Shown here: one piece after another, positions 2,490 through 13,397 of the stretch
How positions within the stretch are numbered: the first letter of the stretch is position 1
How the letters are laid out: every line of letters begins with the position of its first letter
Origin: a virus
Lineage: Duplodnaviria; Heunggongvirae; Uroviricota; Caudoviricetes
Length of the DNA: 13,397 nucleotides
Virus record (IMG/VR): IMGVR_UViG_2671180674_000013
Direction: 5' to 3' (one strand)
Notes under the pieces: generated by a model
The model's database searches: none
Seen by the model: only the letters and a program-made list of their open reading frames with translations
What the model was told of the DNA's origin: nothing
Translations under genes and position numbers: made by a program

Positions 2490-3680
2490 ATGGCGCGTAT
2501 CACACGCCCCCTCACTAACAATGAAATCCTTAAAGCCAAACCCCGTGAAAAAGACTTCACCCTTCATGATGGTGATGGCTTGTTCTTGCTCGTCAAAACC
2601 ACTGGTAAAAAACTCTGGCGCTTCCGTTATCAACGACCGGGAAGCAGCAGCCGCACAAATTTGAGTCTCGGCTCATATCCTGCCCTTACACTCGCAGCAG
2701 CTCGTCAGATACGCGACCAGCACTTAACCACGCTTGCGCAAGGTATGGATCCGCAGCAGCAACAAGAGCAGGCATCAGAACAACGTCAGATTGAGTTGGA
2801 TAGTATTTTCTCAACTGTGGCCGCCAACTGGTTCAAAATGAAGAGCAAAAGTGTCACTGAAGACTACGCTAAAGATATTTGGCGCTCTTTGGATAAGGAT
2901 GTGTTCCCTGCAATAGGCGCGATTCCTGTTCAGGAGATTAAGGCCAGAACGATAGTTGAAGCGTTGGAACCAATCAAAGCACGAGGTGCATTAGAAACTG
3001 TTCGTCGCTTGGTCCAGCGCATTAACGAAATAATGATTTACGCAGTTAACACAGGCCTGATTGATGCTAATCCGGCATCGGGTGTCGGAATGGCATTTGA
3101 GAAACCGAAAAAGCAAAACATGCCGACACTTCGACCAGAAGAATTGCCAAAGCTCATGCGCTCTTTGGTGATGTCGAATCTCTCAGTTTCGACCCGCTGT
3201 CTAATTGAATGGCAACTCCTGACGCTCGTGCGTCCATCTGAGGCTTCTGGCGCTCGGTGGGTAGAGATCGATCTTGATGCCAGGCTCTGGACAATTCCAG
3301 CAGAGCGGATGAAAGCAAATCGAGAGCATATCGTTCCTTTATCAACCCAGGCGTTAGAAATTTTGGAAGTAATGAAGCCTATTAGTGCTCATCGTGAACA
3401 TGTCTTCCCCAGTAGAAATGATCCCAAACAGCCAATGAATAGCCAGACGGCGAACGCTGCCTTAAAGCGGATTGGTTATGGTGGAAAGTTGGTTGCACAT
3501 GGTTTACGTTCAATTGCGAGTACAGCTATGAACGAGGCGGGATTCAATGCTGACGTCATTGAGTCTGCTCTAGCACACTCTGATAGAAATGAAGTTAGAA
3601 GAGCTTATAATCGTTCTACATATCTAGATAAAAAAATAATACTATTTAACTGGTGGGGTGCACAGGTCTATAAGAAGTAA
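2490..3680 (+). CDS. int: P4-family tyrosine integrase (CP4-57 IntA-like)
   Basis: 396 aa. N-terminal MARITRPLTNNEILKAKP...DGDGLFLLV...KLWRFRY and C-terminal HGLRSIASTAMNEAGF...ALAHSDRNEVRRAYNRSTYL match the conserved blocks of P4/CP4-57-type integrases as I remember them. It sits about 180 bp downstream of the ssrA 3' core, as intA does relative to ssrA in E. coli K-12. Confidence 0.9.
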   Translation: MARITRPLTNNEILKAKPREKDFTLHDGDGLFLLVKTTGKKLWRFRYQRPGSSSRTNLSLGSYPALTLAAARQIRDQHLTTLAQGMDPQQQQEQASEQRQIELDSIFSTVAANWFKMKSKSVTEDYAKDIWRSLDKDVFPAIGAIPVQEIKARTIVEALEPIKARGALETVRRLVQRINEIMIYAVNTGLIDANPASGVGMAFEKPKKQNMPTLRPEELPKLMRSLVMSNLSVSTRCLIEWQLLTLVRPSEASGARWVEIDLDARLWTIPAERMKANREHIVPLSTQALEILEVMKPISAHREHVFPSRNDPKQPMNSQTANAALKRIGYGGKLVAHGLRSIASTAMNEAGFNADVIESALAHSDRNEVRRAYNRSTYLDKKIILFNWWGAQVYKK

Positions 3681-3712: not shown

Positions 3713-6349
3713 TTATTCAGTAAATATTACATCATCAATATTAAAAGACACTTTAAAATTAGGGTAGAGTTTCAATATTACCTTTTCGAAAATCTCATCA
3801 TCATCATTTAAATTTCTTGCTCTTGAATAAAGACGGTAATTATCTTTTGTTATTTGTTTAATTTCGATATGACAAGCATCATTACTATCAAAGCCTCTAA
3901 AGAAGGTAAAACTATCCAAACTTACAGCATAAATATTATTCAAGGCATTTTCGTCCTCAAAGAAGTAAGTTAACTTATAATCCTTATAAACTTCATAATT
4001 ATAGTTCTTAACTGAATTTTTATTCACAAATAATATATAATTACTCTTCTCTATATCAGCATCATTAAATTTTAAAAAACGCCCTCCTGCTTTGACACAA
4101 TTGAATAATTGCTGCTTATATATAGATATGATTCCATCTCCATATAGCCCAGCACTTGATAAATATGAAACATCATCAACCACGCCTAAAAACTCACGTT
4201 TTGATGGATAAAAAATTAGTTCACTTGTTTTATGGCATATAGGAAGCTTGGATAAATCAACATTTAATGTACTAACAAGCCATTTATTTAAATGTAAATT
4301 CACATCTATTTTAAAGCGTAATACAATGTTCTTATCCATTGTCGATTTTATAACTTTTCTCGTAACTTCTTTGCTCTTATACTCCAACATCATATCAAAT
4401 TTATCTTTAATTAAATCCACTTCCCTTTTCACTTCATTATTATCATACCCCATAGATGTTACCATTATATCTAATTCAGGAGACTCACACGCTTTAATTA
4501 GCAGGTGATAGTCGTTAGAACTAAATCCCACCACATCGACTAATTTACGCCAGTCGTACAAGTATCTCAGGTTAAACCCTCTACGTTTTACAGCCAAAAC
4601 CAATAATATAAAGACTAATGCTCTTATTGCATAGTGATATTCTGTAACAGTATAGGCCTCACCTTCCGGGAGATTTCTAATTCGTTGTTCATCTATACTT
4701 GCACGAATTCTTTCTTCATAAGAACCAAATAACATTCCATATAACTCAACTTCATCTGTATAATTAGAAAAGATAGCAAGATCGCTCCACAATTTGCTAG
4801 CATTAATTATCGCATCGATCTCCACGTCACTTTTATTGTCAGTTTGAATTGCGCTCCAACGCATCTGAAGAACAGTTAAAACAAACCGCTGAATTTTAAA
4901 TATAACAGAAATAATTTCGCTAGCATTTCTTTTTTCTAAATTCAAATACTTGACACTAAGATGCTTAGTTCCTGCATTAAAGTACTCCCCCCAAAACATT
5001 ATCGCACTGTAATCTAACTCATTGCATGCAGATTCAATCAACCCTTTAATGACTTCATAATAGTCTGCGTTATCATCGTGATAACTCAAATAACTATTCA
5101 AGGTATCTTCATGATTTTTGATAAAAGCATTAAAGTCATCTCTATTTAAAGAGAGTTTTGCTATCTGTATTATAAATTCTAACGCGGCAGTTTTCTTTCT
5201 AAGATTAACATTCAACTCAGAAAAATTATTCATTAACTCATCAATAGAATTTTTTTTCACATCCGAATTATTTAAATATTGATATGACAGTCCAAAAGCT
5301 ATATCAAAAGGATATGCTGAAACATCCCCATTAACTAAGCATGAAAAAACATTAATAGCATTTCTTATTGACTCTCTGTTATTTTCCAAAAGAGCACTAT
5401 ACAGATAGATGACAACCCCATTAATTAATTCATCATAATGATTAATCACTTTAAATTCATTATCTGTTATTAACACACCAACAATCAAAGAAGAAACTTT
5501 CTTTGATGATTTTTTATCCAAAATTTTTTTAGCCGTATAATTAACTTCTATAGTTTTGCTTCCACTACTATGCAGGTTAATATTTGGCACAATAATTTCA
5601 TATTCATCCAATAAACCTTTTATCTTCATTCCATTTAAAAAATTGTTTAGTTTATGGAATTTCTCTAAATCTATGTCAACAGTCAAAACATTATCACCCC
5701 CATATATCCCTATGCTATATGGTTGTTGCTTTTGCATTTTCATTTTGCCATAAGAATAATATCCATTTGGTAAATCTCTAACTAGATTTAAAATCTTATC
5801 ATGTAATTCAGAGTTAGCATCCTCTAACAAGGTATAACCCTTGACAAGACTTGAGCAGTGAGATTGTAAATACTCAACAGCGAAGTTCTTATTACGTGAC
5901 ATGTTAAATAATTTCAAGTATGTTTTAAAATACTTCAAAAGAAAATACATTGATAGTAATTGTGACACCACATACTGAGCAATACCACCACCAAAAACAA
6001 AAAAGAAGAATGAAATTATCAAGGTTGATATTGCATCAATACCAAACTGCACAAGGTTGATTTCATCCAGTATCTTTTTCCTAATATAACTTTCCAACGC
6101 ACGAGGTGAGGATTTATTAACAGCATCAACAGTCACACTCATAAAAGTTAATGACAACGCACTGATTGTACCGTGTATACCTAAGGAGACCCCCCAAGCA
6201 CTAAATATCCAATCAAACCCCAATTTTTTTAAATCACTAGAATTAGAAAACAACCACCACCACTCATTTTTACAAAAAAAAACAAGAATACATAAAGTAA
6301 AAAAAATAAAAAAACCAGAGATATAACAAAACAATCTTTTACCCATCAT
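3713..6349 (-). CDS. large membrane-anchored protein of unknown function; candidate anti-phage defence / abortive-infection effector
   Basis: 878-codon uninterrupted frame. Strongly AT-rich: a few sampled lines give roughly 20-32% G+C, against visibly GC-rich neighbours. The first ~145 residues contain 3-4 hydrophobic helices (LFCYISGFFIFFTLCILVFFC, FDWIFSAWGVSLGIHGTISALSLTFMSV, FGIDAISTLIISFFFFVFGGGIAQYVV). The remaining ~730 residues are hydrophilic and Asn/Lys/Tyr-rich with no canonical Walker A, HNH or PD-(D/E)xK motif seen by eye. AAGGA lies just upstream of the ATG. Confidence 0.8.
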   Translation of the reverse strand: MMGKRLFCYISGFFIFFTLCILVFFCKNEWWWLFSNSSDLKKLGFDWIFSAWGVSLGIHGTISALSLTFMSVTVDAVNKSSPRALESYIRKKILDEINLVQFGIDAISTLIISFFFFVFGGGIAQYVVSQLLSMYFLLKYFKTYLKLFNMSRNKNFAVEYLQSHCSSLVKGYTLLEDANSELHDKILNLVRDLPNGYYSYGKMKMQKQQPYSIGIYGGDNVLTVDIDLEKFHKLNNFLNGMKIKGLLDEYEIIVPNINLHSSGSKTIEVNYTAKKILDKKSSKKVSSLIVGVLITDNEFKVINHYDELINGVVIYLYSALLENNRESIRNAINVFSCLVNGDVSAYPFDIAFGLSYQYLNNSDVKKNSIDELMNNFSELNVNLRKKTAALEFIIQIAKLSLNRDDFNAFIKNHEDTLNSYLSYHDDNADYYEVIKGLIESACNELDYSAIMFWGEYFNAGTKHLSVKYLNLEKRNASEIISVIFKIQRFVLTVLQMRWSAIQTDNKSDVEIDAIINASKLWSDLAIFSNYTDEVELYGMLFGSYEERIRASIDEQRIRNLPEGEAYTVTEYHYAIRALVFILLVLAVKRRGFNLRYLYDWRKLVDVVGFSSNDYHLLIKACESPELDIMVTSMGYDNNEVKREVDLIKDKFDMMLEYKSKEVTRKVIKSTMDKNIVLRFKIDVNLHLNKWLVSTLNVDLSKLPICHKTSELIFYPSKREFLGVVDDVSYLSSAGLYGDGIISIYKQQLFNCVKAGGRFLKFNDADIEKSNYILFVNKNSVKNYNYEVYKDYKLTYFFEDENALNNIYAVSLDSFTFFRGFDSNDACHIEIKQITKDNYRLYSRARNLNDDDEIFEKVILKLYPNFKVSFNIDDVIFTE

Positions 6350-6476: not shown

Positions 6477-6576
6477 TGCCCGCTTAAGAGGTCACTTTTA
6501 ATGCAGGTGCATGAACGGCCTCAGACCGCACCGGTACTGGTGTTGCGTGGGATAAAAAATACGGGGATTTGCATGC

Positions 6577-6610
6577 AAAGCCATGCACCTTATGGATGCA
6601 TGGCTTTTTT
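6577..6610 (+). terminator. terminator-like hairpin (canonical on + strand; may also act on the late operon)
   Basis: AAAGCCATGCA (6577-6587) pairs with TGCATGGCTTT (6597-6607) around a 9-nt loop, followed by TTTTTT to 6610 on the + strand. On the minus strand only 3 U follow the stem. Confidence 0.45.
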
Positions 6611-6648
6611 CGGGAAAAATAGCGGAATTTTCGGTTTTTTTTCGCGTG

Positions 6649-7215
6649 CTACCGTGCGGCCAGTTCTGCACGTCGGCGGGTGTAAATCAGGTTCTGTGCC
6701 GGGGTGAATTTCTGGCGATTATCATCCCGCGAAGCCGCATCAGGCCTGAATCCGATAGCCGTTAAAATATCGCTGTCCTGCACGGAATAATTAATTTTTT
6801 CACCTGCGGCCAGCCACACCGACAGGGCTTCACGCAGATAATCAACCGAGTGCTGCATGGCGCTCTGTTTTACTGCGGGAAGCTGTTCGTGATATCCCAT
6901 CAGCTCAGGTGCCAGCGTGGCGGCCAGCTCCGCGCCGTGCTGCTGCATAAAGTCATGGAGCCGGTTGCGGATACTGATGTGCTGCACCTCCTCATGTGAG
7001 CGGATATAGCGACCGGCGGCCTGATTAATTTCCCACTTTTTCACGTCGATATTGTCGCGCAAATCCTGCATTCTGAGCGGGATTTGTTCGTCACCGGCAA
7101 GGAGCTGTTCACGGTATTCCCGTTCAAGGTCTGCCAGTTCGGCTTTACGTTTCAGCCAGGTGTTTTTGTTCGTCTGACAGGCCTCAAAGGCCTGCTGTAT
7201 GGTCACAGTGGTCAC
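6649..7215 (-). CDS. psu: Psu-like protein (polarity suppression / capsid decoration), by position and size
   Basis: 188 aa, last gene of the minus-strand late operon, immediately before the cos-like site. P4 Psu is about 190 aa and occupies the same position (sid-delta-psu-cos). This is not a verified sequence match. Confidence 0.5.
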   Translation of the reverse strand: MTTVTIQQAFEACQTNKNTWLKRKAELADLEREYREQLLAGDEQIPLRMQDLRDNIDVKKWEINQAAGRYIRSHEEVQHISIRNRLHDFMQQHGAELAATLAPELMGYHEQLPAVKQSAMQHSVDYLREALSVWLAAGEKINYSVQDSDILTAIGFRPDAASRDDNRQKFTPAQNLIYTRRRAELAAR

Positions 7216-7230
7216 GTGTCTCTCTCCTGA

Positions 7231-7470
7231 TTAATGCCGGAACGGCGAGCTGTAGCAGCCCTGTACTTTACGCGGCGGCGGTGGCGTCACCGGGGCGGGG
7301 TCGGGTTTCTCCGGTGCGGCACGTATCACACCGTCAACCGACTCGATGGTGCGGAAAGTGGCCGAGCATTCGATATTGGTACACTGGTGATAACGCTGTT
7401 TGACGTTTTCCGACAGATAACGGCTGGTACGGACGTGCGCGGTATTTTTGCAGAACGGGCAGTGAAACAT
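7231..7470 (-). CDS. ogr: Ogr/Delta-family zinc-finger late transcriptional activator
   Basis: MFHCPFCKNTAHVRTSRYLSENVKQRYHQCTNIECSATFRTIESV carries the C-x2-C...C-x4-C spacing and the conserved RTSRY, RYHQC and CSATF blocks of P2 Ogr as I recall them. Single-domain, 79 aa. Confidence 0.85.
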   Translation of the reverse strand: MFHCPFCKNTAHVRTSRYLSENVKQRYHQCTNIECSATFRTIESVDGVIRAAPEKPDPAPVTPPPPRKVQGCYSSPFRH

Positions 7471-7473
7471 GAT

Positions 7474-8217
7474 TCAGCCCTCTGCCTGTTCGTGGGATTT
7501 TTCTGCCAGTTCAGCGGCAAGTTTCATCCGTCTGGCCGGGCTTCTTAACAGCGCCATATCAACCCCGGTTATGACCGGGCGATTCATGCCCGTTACGGAC
7601 AGGACCGGCTCCTGCTCCATATCAAAATGATACAGGGCTGACTGCATATTCAGGGCATCACCCAGCTCGCGGGTCACGGTCGCACGCGGCGAGGTATCTC
7701 CACTCATTTCCAGCGACCGTATACGCAACAGAAAGGCACGTAACAGTGCAGGATTGATACCGGTCAGCGCCTTCTTCCACTCGCTGTTGGCGTAGGTAGT
7801 GAACGCTTTTTCATGGGCGCTGATATAAGCCGTACCGGAGGAGCATGCGCCAAGCATGGCGTGGCTTTTGTCTTTCTCCAGCTCGGTAATCAGACCGGTG
7901 AACTCATCAGCCAGTTCGCGGCTGGCGATACGTTTGCTGTGTTCAGCTTTCAGTTCAGGAGTGAGGTTGCCGCGCAGAGTTCGAAAGCGGCTGCGCCAGT
8001 CCTGTTCGGCCTGTGCGCTTTCACTGAGGGCGGTCTGTCGTTCCTGCTCACAACGCTGAATGGAAGCCTCAATGTCGCTGAGTTTACCCATGCAGGCCGA
8101 GTGTGCGTCTTTTGCTTCGTTAAGTGCGGCCAGCGCACCGGCAATACGTTGTTCCGCGCCTTCATCCTGTTTACTGATAACGGTCTGCATGGCTTTGATA
8201 ATGAGTTCGGGTTTCAT
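7474..8217 (-). CDS. Sid-like protein (capsid size determination scaffold), by position
   Basis: First gene of the late operon, just upstream of the ogr/delta-like gene. Start placed at the ATG complementary to 8215-8217, which has GGAG 9 nt upstream and gives 247 aa (P4 Sid is about 244 aa). The ORF track extends it to 8283 without an RBS and into the putative promoter. Confidence 0.45.
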   Translation of the reverse strand: MKPELIIKAMQTVISKQDEGAEQRIAGALAALNEAKDAHSACMGKLSDIEASIQRCEQERQTALSESAQAEQDWRSRFRTLRGNLTPELKAEHSKRIASRELADEFTGLITELEKDKSHAMLGACSSGTAYISAHEKAFTTYANSEWKKALTGINPALLRAFLLRIRSLEMSGDTSPRATVTRELGDALNMQSALYHFDMEQEPVLSVTGMNRPVITGVDMALLRSPARRMKLAAELAEKSHEQAEG

Positions 8218-8289
8218 GTTCAGGTTCTCCGTATGTTCAACCTGAAATGATTCTGACGCCTCCTGCACAACAACACGATTCATTGCCGT

Positions 8290-8307
8290 TGTCAGAGTGC
8301 TGGCACA
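8290..8307. promoter_or_regulatory. TGT-N12-ACA dyad: candidate Ogr/Delta binding site of the late (Psid-like) promoter
   Basis: TGTCAGAGTGCTGGCACA at 8290-8307. The dyad centre is about 80 nt upstream of the proposed sid-like start, which would place it near -55 relative to a plausible transcription start, as in P2/P4 late promoters. Confidence 0.45.
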
Positions 8308-8385
8308 AACAGACCTTAAAATCAGGCTGGCCAGAGAAAGGTCGCAGGAAAACCTTACTCACCGTTTGTTTTTTTACTTATAACT

Positions 8386-8488
8386 ATTCACCACTGTTCA
8401 CCTTAAATAAAAAGATAAGTAATACAGTAAGTTAAATGGTGAACAGTTGAAGGTCTGACTGTTCACCGTCTGTTCACCACTGTTCACC
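8386..8488. repeat. iteron cluster of TGTTCACC octamers (P4 crr-like alpha-binding region)
   Basis: Perfect TGTTCACC at 8395-8402, 8460-8467, 8471-8478 and 8481-8488. Inverted copy GGTGAACA at 8438-8445. Degenerate ATTCACC at 8386-8392. Confidence 0.7.
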
Positions 8489-8570
8489 CTTCAGTTTTGC
8501 TCTGGCTATATCATTTAGACTTTATTACGATTGAAAACGAAGAATATATAACTAAAAGAGATATTAATTG

Positions 8571-8627
8571 CTGCATTGTAATGCAGTGATTTGCATATGT
8601 TTGCCAGCGTTTGCCTTTGTTTGCCAG
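8571..8627. promoter_or_regulatory. palindrome plus helically phased GTTTGCC repeats in the promoter region of the alpA-like operon
   Basis: Perfect 16-nt palindrome CTGCATTGTAATGCAG at 8571-8586. GTTTGCC at 8599, 8609 and 8619 (10-bp phasing), with TGTTTGCCAG repeated at 8598-8607 and 8618-8627. Confidence 0.4.
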
Positions 8628-8754
8628 AGCGAAAAGTCAATGTTTGTTTCCCCGAAAATCTCACATGACCTGAGGGAAAATATAAACATAATAAGGAGCT
8701 ACCCGAAGCCGGACGGACACGACCGGCACTGTATGGACTTTGTGAGGTAGCCCG

Positions 8755-9021
8755 ATGCACACCGCTTTTTCTTCCCCGTCTTCTGCCCCTGCCGCGCCGC
8801 TGATGCCGGTTTCTGATACCGTTCACGAGCGCTTTATCCGTCTGCCCGAAGTGATGCATCTGTGCGGCCTGTCCCGCTCGACCATTTACGACCTCATCAG
8901 CCGGGAAGCCTTCCCGAAACAAATCTCCCTCGGCGGAAAAAACGTGGCGTGGGCGCAGTCTGAAATCACTGCATGGATGGCGGATCGCATTGCCGAACGT
9001 AACCGGGGCTATGACGCATGA
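8755..9021 (+). CDS. alpA: AlpA-family phage transcriptional regulator (MerR-like HTH)
   Basis: The segment [47 protein letters not shown] matches the AlpA helix-turn-helix pattern (RLP.V....G.SR.TIY......FP.....G...V.W...EI..W). GAGG lies 8 nt before ATG 8755. Confidence 0.7.
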
Positions 9022-9148
9022 TGATGGCCGCTCAGCAAAAAGCCCCTTTTTCTGGCTTGCTTCTTTTCGCCGTTTCCAGGTATAGTTTTCCCGCTGTCGC
9101 AAAATCGGCAGCCGGGATTGGCGTCCCGTTTACAACATTGGCGACACC

Positions 9149-9171
9149 GGACGCGCCTTGCGTCTTTTTTT
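9149..9171 (+). terminator. short-stem intrinsic terminator in the leader downstream of the alpA-like gene
   Basis: GACGC (9150-9154) pairs with GCGTC (9160-9164) around a 5-nt loop, followed by seven T (9165-9171). The stem is only 5 bp, so it is weak or conditional. Confidence 0.35.
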
Positions 9172-9374
9172 GTGTCTATGCCTCAGCGCATCCATTTTTG
9201 ATCCAGAGATTTATCTGTCTATGGATCCTTCGTGTAATGGTGGCTCAGGCGGGGGCTTCTCACGAAGCGCCGGTTTCCAATGTTGCCGGTTACGCCAACC
9301 CCGTCTGGGCTACCACCAGTGAAATTGGCGTTTCCAGTGGTAGCAGTCACATGCAAACATTGGAGGTTGCCACT

Positions 9375-9569
9375 ATGGCTACGACCCTCACCCCGTCACA
9401 CCCGCAGTTTGTCTTTGTGTTTGCCGCCGTTCGTCGCGCAGACCGTAAACCCCGTATTTGCATGCTGCGCACCGTTGCCGGTGACGAGCACGCCGCACGC
9501 CTTTCCCTCGTTCGCGATTACATCCTCTCGTTCGCTGGCCGTCTGCCGGTTGCGGAGGTGCGCGCATGA
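9375..9569 (+). CDS. hypothetical small protein (64 aa)
   Basis: Strong GGAGG at 9362-9366, 8-nt spacer, ATG 9375. The longer 9018-start form in the ORF track has non-protein-like composition upstream of this ATG. Confidence 0.5.
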
Positions 9570-9793
9570 GACACACCACCATTACTGCCCGTGACCTCGA
9601 ATGTCTGGAGCATATGCGCAATGTCGGCCAGCTCGTCAGCGACCTGATGCAGGTGCAGGACTGCGCCACCGTTCGTCGTGACCCTGCGCAGCAGTTACAG
9701 CTCACCTCCGTGATTTACCTCATGACCGCCCAGCTCGACGGCGTGGTCGAACGCTGCAATCAGCAGTGGCTGACCGGGGAGGGTAACGTATGA
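9566..9793 (+). CDS. hypothetical protein (75 aa), translationally coupled
   Basis: ATGA start/stop overlap with the preceding ORF at 9566-9569; acidic, helical-looking sequence. Confidence 0.5.
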
Positions 9794-10110
9794 AAAAGCC
9801 ATTACCACCCGTATTACGCGCCGCGCTGTATCGTCGCGCCGTGGCCTGTGCATGGCTGACCCTGTGCGAACGCCAGCACCGCTACCCGCACCTCACCCTC
9901 GACGCGCTGGAAAGCGCCATTGCCGCCGAGCTGGAGGGCTTCTACCTGCGCCAGCACGGCGAGGAAAAAGGCCGTCAGATTGCCTGTGCCCTGCTCGAAG
10001 ATTTAATGGAAGCCGGACCACTGAAAGCCGCCCCGTCGCTGTCCTTTCTCGGGCTGGCCGTGATGGATGAACTCTGCGCCCGTCATATCACCGCACCGGC
10101 ACTGCACTGA
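9790..10110 (+). CDS. hypothetical protein (106 aa), translationally coupled
   Basis: ATGA overlap at 9790-9793. Directly precedes the primase gene, in the position of the P4 epsilon/accessory genes. Confidence 0.5.
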
Positions 10111-10121
10111 GGGAAAACACC

Positions 10122-12455
10122 ATGAAAATGAACGTAACGGACACCGTAAAACAGGCGTGCGGCCACTGGCCGCGCATTCTCCCTGCGCTGGGTGTGAAGG
10201 TGATTAAAAACCGCCATCAGTCCTGCCCGGTGTGCGGCGGCTCCGACCGCTTTCGCTTTGACGATAAAGAGGGGCGCGGGACGTGGTTCTGTAACCAGTG
10301 CGGCGCGGGAGACGGCCTGAAACTGGTAGAGAAAGTGTTCGGCATGACCCCGTCAGAGGCGGCCGGGAAGGTGAACGCCGTGACCGGCAACCTGCCGCCG
10401 GTTTCCCCGGAAGTGACTGCGGCCGCAGAGGCCGAAACTGTGGCCGACCGCAAAGCGGCGGCCGCGCTGGCCGTCAGGATCATGGAGAAAACCCGACCGG
10501 CCACCGGCAATGCCTACCTCACCCGCAAGGGTTTCCCCGACCGGGAATGTCTGACGCTCACCGTCATGCATAAAACCGGCGGCGTGACGTTCCGCGCCGG
10601 TGATGTGGTTGTCCCGCTGTATGAGGATACCGGCACACTGGTTAACCTTCAGCTTATCAATGCTGACGGTCTCAAGCGCACCCTGAAAGGCGGTCAGGTC
10701 AAAGGTGCATGCCATACCATTGAAGGGCAAAAACAGGCGGGAAAACGCCTGTGGATTGCGGAGGGTTATGCGACCGCGCTCACCGTGCATCACCTGACCG
10801 GGGAAACCGTCATGGTGGCGCTGTCCTCCGTGAACCTCCTTTCTCTGGCGAGCCTTACCCGTCAGAAGTCCCCGGCCTGTCAGATTGTGCTGGCCGCTGA
10901 CCGTGACCTGAACGGCGACGGCCAGAGCAAAGCCGCTGCGGCCGCAGATGCCTGTGAGGGCATTGTTGCCCTGCCGCCGGTGTTCGGTGACTGGAATGAT
11001 GCGTTTATGCAGAAAGGTGAAGAGGCCACGCGGAAAGCCATTTATGACGCCATCCGGCCACCGGCGCAAAGTCCGTTTGATACCATGAGCGAAGCGGAAT
11101 TTACCGCCATGAGCGCCAGCGACAAGGCCTTGCGGGTGCATGAGCATTACGGCGAAGCGCTGGCGGTGGATGCGAACGGCCAGCTCCTGTCCCGCTATGA
11201 AAACGGCATCTGGAAAAATATCCCTGCCGCCACTTTCTCACGGAATGTGGCTGACTTATTCCAGCGTCTGCGCGCCCCGTTCTCGTCCGGGAAAATTGCC
11301 TCGGTAGTGGAGACCCTGAAACTGATTATTCCGCAGCAGGATACACCGGCACGTCGTCTGATTGGCTTTCGCAACGGGGTACTCGATACCCAAAGCGGCG
11401 TATTCAGCCCGCACCATAAATCGCACTGGCTGCGCACGCTGTGCGACGTGGATTTTACCCCGCCGGTGGACGGGGAAACGCTGGAGACTCACGCGCCAAA
11501 CTTCTGGCGCTGGCTCGACCGTGCAGCCGGTAAAAACCCACAAAAACGCGACGTGATTCTGGCCGCGCTTTTTATGGTGCTGGCGAACCGTTACGACTGG
11601 CAGCTCTTTCTCGAAGTGACCGGTCCCGGCGGGAGTGGCAAAAGTATTCTGGCCGAAATCGCGACCCTGCTCGCCGGAGAGGATAACGCCACGTCGGCCG
11701 ACATCGACACGCTGGAAGACCCGCGCAAGCGAGCATCCCTGATTGGCTTCTCGCTAATCCGTCTGCCTGACCAGGAAAAATGGAGCGGTGACGGCGCAGG
11801 ACTCAAGGCAATCACCGGCGGCGATGCGGTCTCGGTTGACCCGAAATACCAGAACCCCTATTCCACGCATATTCCGGCTGTAATTCTGGCCGTGAACAAC
11901 AACCCGATGCGCTTCACCGACCGCAGCGGCGGCGTGTCGCGTCGCCGGGTGATTATTCACTTCCCGGAGCAGATTGCCCCGGAGGAACGCGACCCGCAGC
12001 TCAGGGATAAAATTGCGCGCGAGCTGGCCGTCATTGTGCGCCAGCTTATGCAGAAATTCAGCGACCCGATGACCGCGCGCACACTGCTCCAGTCGCAGCA
12101 GAACTCCGACGAGGCACTCAGCATCAAGCGCGATGCTGACCCGACGTTTGATTTTTGCGGCTATCTGGAAATGCTGCCGCAGACCAACGGGATGTTTATG
12201 GGGAATGCCAGCATCATCCCGCGTAATTATCGTAAATATCTCTATCACGCGTATCTGGCCTATATGGAGGCTAACGGCTACAGGAACGTGCTCAGCCTGA
12301 AAATGTTCGGGCTGGGGCTGCCCATGATGCTGAAAGAGTACGGCCTGAATTATGAGAAGCGGCACACCAAGCAGGGGATACAAACCAATCTGTCGCTGAA
12401 AGAGGAAAGCTACGGAGACTGGTTGCCGAAGTGCGATGACCCCACAGCAACATAA
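10122..12455 (+). CDS. P4 alpha-type bifunctional primase/helicase
   Basis: 777 aa, the same length as P4 alpha. N-terminal zinc-ribbon C-P-V-C-G-G...C-N-Q-C-G, a Toprim-like LWIAEGYATALTVH...AADRD segment, and a Walker A GPGGSGKS (from VTGPGGSGKSIL) in the C-terminal helicase half. GC-rich, with iterons following. Confidence 0.9.
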   Translation: MKMNVTDTVKQACGHWPRILPALGVKVIKNRHQSCPVCGGSDRFRFDDKEGRGTWFCNQCGAGDGLKLVEKVFGMTPSEAAGKVNAVTGNLPPVSPEVTAAAEAETVADRKAAAALAVRIMEKTRPATGNAYLTRKGFPDRECLTLTVMHKTGGVTFRAGDVVVPLYEDTGTLVNLQLINADGLKRTLKGGQVKGACHTIEGQKQAGKRLWIAEGYATALTVHHLTGETVMVALSSVNLLSLASLTRQKSPACQIVLAADRDLNGDGQSKAAAAADACEGIVALPPVFGDWNDAFMQKGEEATRKAIYDAIRPPAQSPFDTMSEAEFTAMSASDKALRVHEHYGEALAVDANGQLLSRYENGIWKNIPAATFSRNVADLFQRLRAPFSSGKIASVVETLKLIIPQQDTPARRLIGFRNGVLDTQSGVFSPHHKSHWLRTLCDVDFTPPVDGETLETHAPNFWRWLDRAAGKNPQKRDVILAALFMVLANRYDWQLFLEVTGPGGSGKSILAEIATLLAGEDNATSADIDTLEDPRKRASLIGFSLIRLPDQEKWSGDGAGLKAITGGDAVSVDPKYQNPYSTHIPAVILAVNNNPMRFTDRSGGVSRRRVIIHFPEQIAPEERDPQLRDKIARELAVIVRQLMQKFSDPMTARTLLQSQQNSDEALSIKRDADPTFDFCGYLEMLPQTNGMFMGNASIIPRNYRKYLYHAYLAYMEANGYRNVLSLKMFGLGLPMMLKEYGLNYEKRHTKQGIQTNLSLKEESYGDWLPKCDDPTAT

Positions 12456-12463
12456 CCTCACTC

Positions 12464-12490
12464 AGACCGGCATCAGCCGGTCTTTTCCTT
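12464..12490 (+). terminator. rho-independent terminator after the primase gene
   Basis: AGACCGG (12464-12470) pairs with CCGGTCT (12477-12483) around a 6-nt loop, followed by TTTTCCTTTC. Confidence 0.6.
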
Positions 12491-12507
12491 TCTGACCATT
12501 GCCACAG

Positions 12508-12792
12508 GGTGAACAATCCACTGTTCACCCTTCACCGTATATTCACCCTGTATCACCATGAAATTATTGATAAAAAACCAGAGGTGAACAGTGTGAATAG
12601 TAAAACCTGAAAAAACTTTTTATCCCTCCACCACATCGCCTGACCGGGCGCATCCAGAGCGAGAAAAAAACACAAAGGTGAAGAGTCGACTGTTCACTCT
12701 TCACCAACTCATCACCATTTATCTTTATGATTTAAAATAGAAAATAAGCATGGTGAACAGTGTGAACAGTTAAATGCAAAAAAACTTTTTTT
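12508..12792. repeat. iteron cluster of TGTTCACC/GGTGAACA octamers with A/T-tract elements (P4 ori-like)
   Basis: GGTGAACA at 12508-12515, 12583-12590 and 12752-12759. TGTTCACC at 12522-12529. Near-copies at 12531-12537, 12541-12548, 12677-12684, 12691-12698, 12700-12705 and 12761-12769. Inverted repeat GGTGAAGAGT (12677-12686) / ACTCTTCACC (12696-12705). A5-6CT5-7 tracts at 12609-12623 and 12776-12792. Confidence 0.7.
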
Positions 12793-12858
12793 GAGTATGA
12801 TGTAGCTCTCCATACTTTATGGAAAGATCCAAGTTAGCTGAAAGCCTCACCAAGACAG

Positions 12859-12877
12859 CACGTTAATTCGTAACGTG
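12859..12877. promoter_or_regulatory. inverted repeat (operator-like) just upstream of the terminal AT-rich ORF
   Basis: CACGTTA (12859-12865) and TAACGTG (12871-12877) flank a 5-nt spacer, about 20 nt before ATG 12897. Confidence 0.3.
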
Positions 12878-12896
12878 TTAAGCAAAAGGGAATTTT

Positions 12897-13397
12897 ATGG
12901 GGACTACTTTGCTTCAAGAAAACCATGAAAAAATTTTAAACATACTAAATGAAGCTAAAGATGTGGCGCTAAGGTATTACAAATTAACCAATAAGCCTCT
13001 CGGAATCACTGGAGAAATAGCTGAACATGAAGCTGCAACTCTTCTCGGGTTGTCACTATGTTCAGCACGTCAGTCCGGATACGATGCGACTGAGATTTTG
13101 GACGGGAAAGAATATAGAGTTCAAATCAAAGGTCGATATATGCCTGATCCTAAAAAAGTCTCTGCGAGAATTGGTGCTATTGATATATCTAAGCCATTTG
13201 ATTCTGTTCTTTTAGTTTTGCTTGATGAAAATTATGATGCTTTTGCCATGTATGAAGCATCACGAGATGTAGTAGTCGCAGCTCTTCAAGCTCCGGGGTC
13301 AAAGTCTAGAAATGAGCGAAATCAACTAGGCATAGCAAAATTCAAGTCCATTAGCCGTCTCCGCTGGAGCAAGGTTGCTGAACCTGAGATCCTTTAA
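12897..13397 (+). CDS. hypothetical protein (166 aa), AT-rich accessory gene at the alpha-proximal end of the element
   Basis: Complete frame from ATG 12897 to TAA 13395-13397, with an AGGGA-type RBS upstream. Composition is markedly more AT-rich than the adjacent primase gene. No family recognised. The spaced acidic/basic residues (GEIAEHE...GYDATE...RVQIKGR) are weakly reminiscent of a PD-(D/E)xK-like core, which is speculative. Confidence 0.6.
   Translation: MGTTLLQENHEKILNILNEAKDVALRYYKLTNKPLGITGEIAEHEAATLLGLSLCSARQSGYDATEILDGKEYRVQIKGRYMPDPKKVSARIGAIDISKPFDSVLLVLLDENYDAFAMYEASRDVVVAALQAPGSKSRNERNQLGIAKFKSISRLRWSKVAEPEIL

Follow-up and report, generated by a model that had tools for sequence, protein, structure and literature searches.

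The stretch of DNA analysed here, called the window, is 13,397 nucleotides (13.4 kb) long, and its genes were called from open reading frames and Pfam domains (Table 1). Judged by gene content, the source of the region at 12508-12792 is an integrated P4-like satellite prophage, in which the satellite's own integrase comes first and the genes for Cnr and for the alpha protein come directly before this region. From 6478 to 12791, the window is collinear with P4 11623-4291, in reverse orientation (BLASTN), and the P4-type immunity RNAs C4, isrK, and c4-a1b1 are recognized by Rfam at 9080-9320. A 99%-identical copy of the region at 12508-12792 is present in the chromosome of E. coli KMi029, where it adjoins ssrA.

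Between ash and cnr, the window holds a 75-aa ORF (9566-9793, + strand), while P4 has no such ORF. It fits the description of a 75-aa family reported in 61% of P4-like elements (PMC8628076).

Table 1. Coordinates of the predicted genes, replication sites, and iterons in the window.
Feature	Position	Strand	Remarks
Integrase	2490-3680		satellite's own, first in gene order
Cargo gene, 878 aa, AT-rich	3713-6349	-	int-psu hotspot
psu	6649-7215		followed by a small ORF at the delta position
ORF at the sid position	7474-8283
ori1 ortholog	8385-8488	+	six iterons, spacings 10/43/22/11/10, around a 35-bp AT-rich core
alpA/orf88	8755-9021
ash	9018-9569
cnr ortholog (P4 ORF106)	9790-10110	+	92% identity to P4 ORF106
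alpha, primase-helicase-origin-binding protein, 777 aa	10122-12455	+	Pfam domains; 85% identity to P4 alpha
t-alpha, Rho-independent terminator with T-rich tail	12464-12483	+	terminator scan; aligns to P4 'talpha'
crr direct repeat 1	12508-12621	+	orthologous to P4 crr repeat 4471-4590
Iteron R1-1, perfect TGTTCACC	12508-12515	-	in register with a P4 'ori type 1 repeat'
Iteron R1-2, perfect TGTTCACC	12522-12529	+	followed by conserved half-copy CTTCACC, 12530-12536
Iteron R1-3, TATTCACC, one mismatch	12540-12547	+
Iteron R1-4, perfect TGTTCACC	12583-12590	-
Iteron R1-5, TATTCACA, two mismatches	12592-12599	-	annotated P4 iteron position
A6-C-T5 tract, end of repeat 1	12610-12621		conserved in P4 and related satellites
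Inter-repeat spacer	12622-12676		poorly conserved; 11 bp shorter than in P4
crr direct repeat 2	12677-12790	+	orthologous to P4 crr repeat 4291-4410
Iteron R2-1, TCTTCACC, one mismatch	12677-12684	-	variant shared with P4 repeat 2; left arm of inverted repeat
Iteron R2-2, TGTTCACT, one mismatch	12691-12698	+
Extra TCTTCACC copy	12698-12705	+	right arm of 10/10 inverted repeat
Iteron R2-3, TCATCACC, two mismatches	12709-12716	+	TATTCACC at this site in P4
AT-rich segment between R2-3 and R2-4	12717-12746		lowest-stability 30-mer when the AT-rich cargo gene is set aside
Iteron R2-4, perfect TGTTCACC	12752-12759	-
Iteron R2-5, TGTTCACA, one mismatch	12761-12768	-
A7-C-T7 tract, end of repeat 2	12778-12792		P4 homology and conservation among relatives stop here

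Iterons and direct repeats downstream of alpha

The octamer TGTTCACC is present in nine perfect copies in the window, against 0.28 expected; none of 200 shuffled sequences has as many as nine. Four of the nine lie in 12508-12792, and five in 8395-8488. When one mismatch is allowed, the 285 bp of the region hold nine copies in both orientations, four of them perfect and five with one mismatch (12540(+), 12677(-), 12691(+), 12698(+), and 12761(-)), compared with about 0.2 expected per 285 bp, a value obtained by scaling down the shuffle mean for the whole window, 9.8. Two more copies, each with two mismatches (12592-12599(-) and 12709-12716(+)) coincide with annotated P4 iteron positions. The preliminary description of this DNA had put the octamers, in both orientations, at four or more perfect copies and some six degenerate ones, which is accurate (four perfect, five one-mismatch, and two two-mismatch copies).

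What that description overlooked is the higher-order direct-repeat structure that holds the octamers. Two direct repeats of about 114-120 bp were found de novo, which are 71% identical, start 169 bp apart, and are separated by a spacer of about 50 bp. Each repeat carries five iterons, oriented -,+,+,-,- and spaced by 14/18/43/9 bp; the ten in-register iterons comprise four perfect, four one-mismatch, and two two-mismatch copies. The 10/10 inverted repeat noticed earlier at 12677-12705 does exist, with 10-nt arms (12677-12686 and 12696-12705) that are 100% complementary and lie 9 nt apart, and it has a counterpart in repeat 1 (12506-12515 and 12522-12531). The internal palindrome is therefore real as an inverted repeat but is not a separate feature, as it consists of two facing iterons.

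Both A-tract/T-tract junctions pointed out earlier are also present, at the ends of the two repeats, and P4 has conserved versions of both. Their proposed role as unwinding elements finds no support in a nearest-neighbour scan of duplex stability, where the minimum falls instead in the part of repeat 2 that separates iterons 3 and 4 (12717-12746; z = 2.55), a value comparable to that of the AT core at 8402-8431 in the other iteron cluster (z = 2.24). In-phase A-tracts would be expected to bend DNA more often than to melt. Nor can the tracts fold into terminator hairpins, as this would leave a loop of 1 nt.

Other types of function were sought in and around the array. No RNA family was detected in 12456-12900 (Rfam, gathering threshold), and no ORF of at least 50 aa lies inside 12530-12890. 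A promoter scan found no sigma-70-like site in 12300-13000, and the array is, therefore, unlikely to be the promoter of the downstream gene.

Correspondence with crr and ori1 of P4

The region at 12508-12792 is very probably a P4-type crr (cis replication region), orthologous to P4 crr and constituting the second predicted alpha-binding array of the satellite. In a distant BLASTN comparison of 12400-12900 with 50,697 phage records, only the three P4 records match, at X51522 4291-4691 (72.8% identity over 392 bp, E = 6e-51). In the window, 9790-12791 forms a single collinear alignment, at 81% identity, to P4 7304-4291, and the synteny of cnr, alpha, terminator, and crr is common to both. The P4 GenBank annotation places crr at 4291-4590, directly after the alpha terminator, and the origin at 9086-9809, about 4.7 kb from crr; the original alpha/crr record X05623 (crr 2733-3032) has the same annotated structure as X51522. 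The order found here, with the alpha stop at 12455, t-alpha at 12464-12483 as the upstream boundary, and the array from 12508, is the same as in P4. The P4 element was reportedly described in 1987.

At the level of the repeats, likeness to P4 crr extends to the position, which adjoins the alpha terminator on the side of att, and to the two direct repeats of about 120 bp, each with five type-I iterons spaced 14/18/43/9 in the same orientations and with A/T-tract ends. Pairwise alignment brings t-alpha, the two repeats, and the two A/T tracts into register, while the spacer alone diverges. The iterons of P4 stand at offsets 0, 14, 32, 75, and 84 in each repeat, and those of the window are found at the same offsets and on the same strands. 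The other traits of a crr are found as well: a short spacer between the repeats, TGTTCACC iterons identical to those of the origin and in both orientations, homology to P4 crr, a cognate alpha, and a partner ori1 several kb away. In a four-way alignment of the repeats, some bases specific to repeat 1 are common to the window and P4, and likewise for repeat 2 (e.g., GGTGAACAATCC versus GGTGAAGA-TCG). As each repeat resembles its own P4 counterpart, the duplication is older than the split between the window and P4, and both copies have been retained.

The two elements also differ. The spacer, about 60 bp long in P4, is 11 bp shorter in the window (169 versus 180 bp from start to start) and largely unrelated in sequence. 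Three of the ten window iterons are weaker, R1-5 and R2-3 having two mismatches and R2-2 reading TGTTCACT. Finally, a gene for a 166-aa methyl-directed restriction enzyme separates crr from the presumed attR in the window, whereas attP alone is found at this place in P4.

Conservation was examined in related satellites. Using alpha as the query, a scan of one genome per species yielded 80 loci, with alpha identities of 57-97%. In most loci with an alpha identity of at least 84%, perfect octamers form one cluster at 55-330 bp past the stop codon of alpha and another about 4 kb upstream of it. When 22 contiguous and non-identical crr regions were aligned, among them those of the window and P4, iteron and A/T-tract columns proved to be conserved at 90-100%, versus about 50-80% for the spacer at 12622-12676; the satellites come from various enterobacterial species but are related lineages. 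Conservation collapses immediately past 12792, and the coordinates 12508-12792 therefore correspond to the conserved unit. Iterons 2 and 4 are 62 bp apart in almost all repeats, the internal spacing of a repeat being nearly invariant. The start-to-start distance of the crr repeats falls into two classes in the 22 satellites, 166-169 bp or 177-181 bp, which differ by about one helical turn and could reflect either a phasing constraint or a single ancestral indel.

These data bear on whether the region could be a decaying, non-functional duplication relic in a defective prophage, a reading that would account for the degeneracy of several iterons and for the many P4-like prophages that are not known to be active. 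It is improbable in the extreme, given that alpha, cnr, and ori1 are all intact, that the iteron columns are nearly invariant across the 22 satellites while the spacer drifts, and that both repeats have been orthologously retained since before the P4 split, with unchanged iteron spacing.

The other iteron cluster of the window, at 8385-8488, lies upstream of crr, at a distance of 4.0 kb, compared to 4.7 kb in P4. It aligns without gaps and with 90% identity to P4 9298-9423, which holds the six annotated ori type-1 repeats. Its iteron spacings are the mirror image of those of P4 (10/11/22/43/10), and iterons 2 and 3 are separated by 35 bp of AT-rich DNA nearly identical to that of P4. By these sequence features, the origin proper of the satellite is ori1 at 8385-8488, not 12508-12792. 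The preliminary description had called the cluster at 8385-8488 crr-like, a label contradicted by this alignment, and had stated that a position after the primase/helicase gene matches P4 ori, which reverses the actual order, since the P4 element directly after the alpha terminator is crr. Because of the P4 alignments, the two labels have to be exchanged: 8385-8488 is ori1, and 12508-12792 is crr. Calling the latter an ori-like cluster holds insofar as it is a cis-acting replication element, an iteron array of an alpha-dependent replicon, but not in the sense of ori, as the region aligns to P4 crr.

It is accordingly very unlikely that 12508-12792 is itself the origin, with alpha melting the A/T tracts and replication starting there. 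Iterons in both orientations and AT-rich DNA, including the low-stability 30-mer at 12717-12746, would be compatible with such an origin, and a second replicon of P4 (oriII) reportedly relies on crr as well, in combination with an intragenic site in alpha. However, the named A/T tracts are not the lowest-stability DNA of the region, the region is orthologous to P4 crr and not to ori, and an intact ori1 ortholog, 90% identical, gap-free, and with P4 spacing and a 35-bp AT-rich core, is available at 8385-8488. In P4, moreover, initiation was reportedly mapped to ori.

The region at 12508-12792 shares with P4 ori1 (X51522 9310-9413, within rep_origin 9086-9809) the octamer, the predicted binding protein, and the extended iteron flanks (CCACTGTTCACCCTTCA). 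Whereas ori1 has six iterons at roughly helical spacing and a 35-bp AT-rich core, and is located between sid and alpA, 12508-12792 differs in arrangement and position and has no ori1 homology beyond the iterons. Homology to P4 9310-9413, the ori1 layout, and a location between sid and alpA/orf88 are all absent from it. A crr repeat as a paralog of the whole ori1 module was considered and rejected: local alignments between crr repeats and ori1 reach z = 7-9 versus shuffles, repeat 2 adding a weaker gapped match of 49 nt, and the strongest of them cover only the iterons and their immediate flanks.

No DnaA box (TTWTNCACA) or IHF (WATCAANNNNTTR) consensus is found in 12400-12900 or 8300-8700. A plasmid-type iteron origin dependent on host initiators would carry DnaA boxes and/or an IHF site beside its iterons, and the absence of such a consensus from both crr and ori1 fits a host-initiator-independent origin. 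Host DnaA is reportedly not needed for P4 replication.

Between ori1 and alpA, at 8590-8629, four tandem 10-bp repeats were also observed (TTTGCATATG, TTTGCCAGCG, TTTGCCTTTG, and TTTGCCAGAG). P4 has, at the same position, three 10-bp 'ori type 2 repeats' (CAYTTAAAGY), the sequence of which is unrelated. The repeats at 8590-8629 may be the site for a regulator of different specificity.

Proposed role of crr and its predicted dependence on alpha

The alpha protein of the satellite is intact and aligns with P4 alpha without gaps, and, over residues 671-770, it agrees in 94 of 100 amino acids with the solved origin-binding domain of P4 (PDB 1KA8). From this resemblance, alpha is predicted to be the ligand of the iterons. 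By analogy with P4, its C-terminal winged-helix domain would bind the crr iterons and the six ori1 iterons, and alpha molecules at crr and ori1 would interact and loop out the intervening 4.0 kb. Opening of ori1 by alpha would require such a bipartite complex in cis, and alpha would prime bidirectional theta replication from ori1, not from crr. The cnr ortholog, which we take to be a copy-number regulator acting through alpha, as in P4, would modulate alpha binding at both sites and so limit the copy number. For 12508-12792, we infer alpha binding, looping, and the cis requirement from the P4 GenBank annotation and the P4 literature. In P4, Cnr raises the DNA binding of alpha and limits the copy number. 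Alpha binding, looping, Cnr, and initiation at ori1 are reportedly treated in P4 studies by Flensburg & Calendar (1987), Ziegelin et al. (1993, 1995, and 1997), Tocchetti et al. (1999), and Yeo et al. (2002).

Iterons that are identical to those of the origin but lie 4 kb away, in an element with a cnr ortholog acting through alpha binding, could also serve mainly as a negative control, which would titrate alpha or 'handcuff' origins without being positively required. In plasmids such as P1, F, and RK2, additional iteron arrays classically act by handcuffing, and the auxiliary arrays P1 incA and F incC resemble crr in that their initiator-binding repeats are clustered away from the origin and pair with it via the initiator. 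Those arrays are, however, dispensable negative regulators, whereas P4 crr is positively required in cis; the initiator here is, in addition, a primase-helicase instead of a Rep protein, and the region has no DnaA-box or IHF consensus. Deletion of P4 crr abolishes replication and does not raise the copy number, and both GenBank records and papers on engineered phasmids call crr 'cis required', which leaves a mainly negative role with little probability, although both roles could coexist. In P4 phasmids, crr is presented as the 'cis required region for replication', 'essential for ... replication' (bioRxiv 10.64898/2026.03.30.715334).

Binding of the iterons by alpha can be looked at through co-variation. 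In 18 loci with a window-like C-terminal domain of alpha, TGTTCACC outnumbers TGTTCACT by 65 to 15 in crr and by 48 to 2 in ori, compared with 22 to 65 in crr and 36 to 43 in ori in 20 loci with a variant domain (EPD...QP.L...H..K.T), these loci being related by descent and representing fewer than 38 independent observations. Across the 80 loci, the last iteron base (C/T) shifts in parallel in crr and ori with the alpha domain type, as expected if one protein domain reads both sites. The association of two alpha winged-helix types with two iteron variants looks like co-evolution of initiator specificity. If alpha does read the iterons, a change of TGTTCACC to TGTTGTCC is predicted to abolish its binding.

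The region at 12508-12792 is an unannotated ortholog of a long-known element, and knowledge of P4 replication is left unchanged. It is matched in 921 of 5,426 complete E. coli genomes, and most of the matches listed have no feature under the match. A large survey of P4-like satellites mentions neither crr nor iterons (PMC8628076). As crr and ori1 are unannotated in bacterial genome records, the value of the assignment lies mainly in annotation. Correct labels for ori1 (8385-8488) and crr (12508-12792) fix the replicon map of the element, and they indicate, for the engineering of P4-like phasmids, which 285 bp must stay in cis.

Cargo beside crr and the probable attachment site

Downstream of crr, the gene at 12897-13397 (+ strand) encodes a 166-aa DUF6998 protein that matches, over its full length, the methyl-directed type II restriction enzyme model mREase_II of PADLOC (E = 1e-100). 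Lying outside the canonical int-psu hotspot, this gene fits the minor 'primase-att' defence hotspot that was already reported (PMC13586616). That study makes no mention of crr, and the relation of the hotspot to crr is thus not discussed in it.

In E. coli KMi029, the satellite has a copy of the 23-bp direct repeat AATTGGTACACGTTTAGGTACAC on either side (7188 and 16936 of locus L003), one near the integrase and the other right at the stop codon of the mREase_II gene. In the window, the left copy is at 2417-2439, and a second copy would start at about 13396, where the window end cuts it off. This repeat probably represents the att duplication, which would make the element about 11.0 kb long, reaching from near 2417 to the end of the window, and would place the mREase_II gene inside it.

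About 17 of the 80 related loci carry 0.7-3 kb of inserted cargo, which either separates crr from the alpha terminator or splits crr into its two halves; these halves can evidently be kilobases apart. Cargo downstream of alpha was recorded in L011, L060, L016, L017, L027, L033, L035, L036, and L039, as well as in L042, L046, L054, L056, L058, L065, L069, L071, and L075. Its domains include an OLD/AriA-like AAA_15 ATPase, PDC-S15, Mrr_cat (Mrr-type nuclease), TacA with a GNAT toxin, ParE, PIN_12, SIR2, and FRG, several of which are of defence or toxin-antitoxin types. The crr repeats might frame a cargo slot, with the 120-bp repeats offering homologous-recombination handles for cargo swapping, but this is rather unlikely. 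Should crr work with its halves kilobases apart, the repeats may double as cargo-swap handles at the 'primase-att' hotspot.

In the int-psu slot, the 878-aa cargo protein (3713-6349, - strand) is without a confident Pfam or PADLOC family, its weak best matches being AbiEi (E = 0.001) and AvrM_N (E = 0.004). The near-identical satellite of KMi029 has another cargo gene (about 480 aa) in this slot.

Upstream of the satellite, the window holds a second tyrosine integrase (399 aa, 948-2147). A 3' fragment of ssrA (tmRNA), ending in ...GGGTTCAACTCCCGCCAGCTCCACCA, is located at 2270-2306, just before the satellite; a complete tmRNA was not found by ARAGORN. Together, the second integrase and the ssrA fragment suggest tandem islands at the ssrA site.
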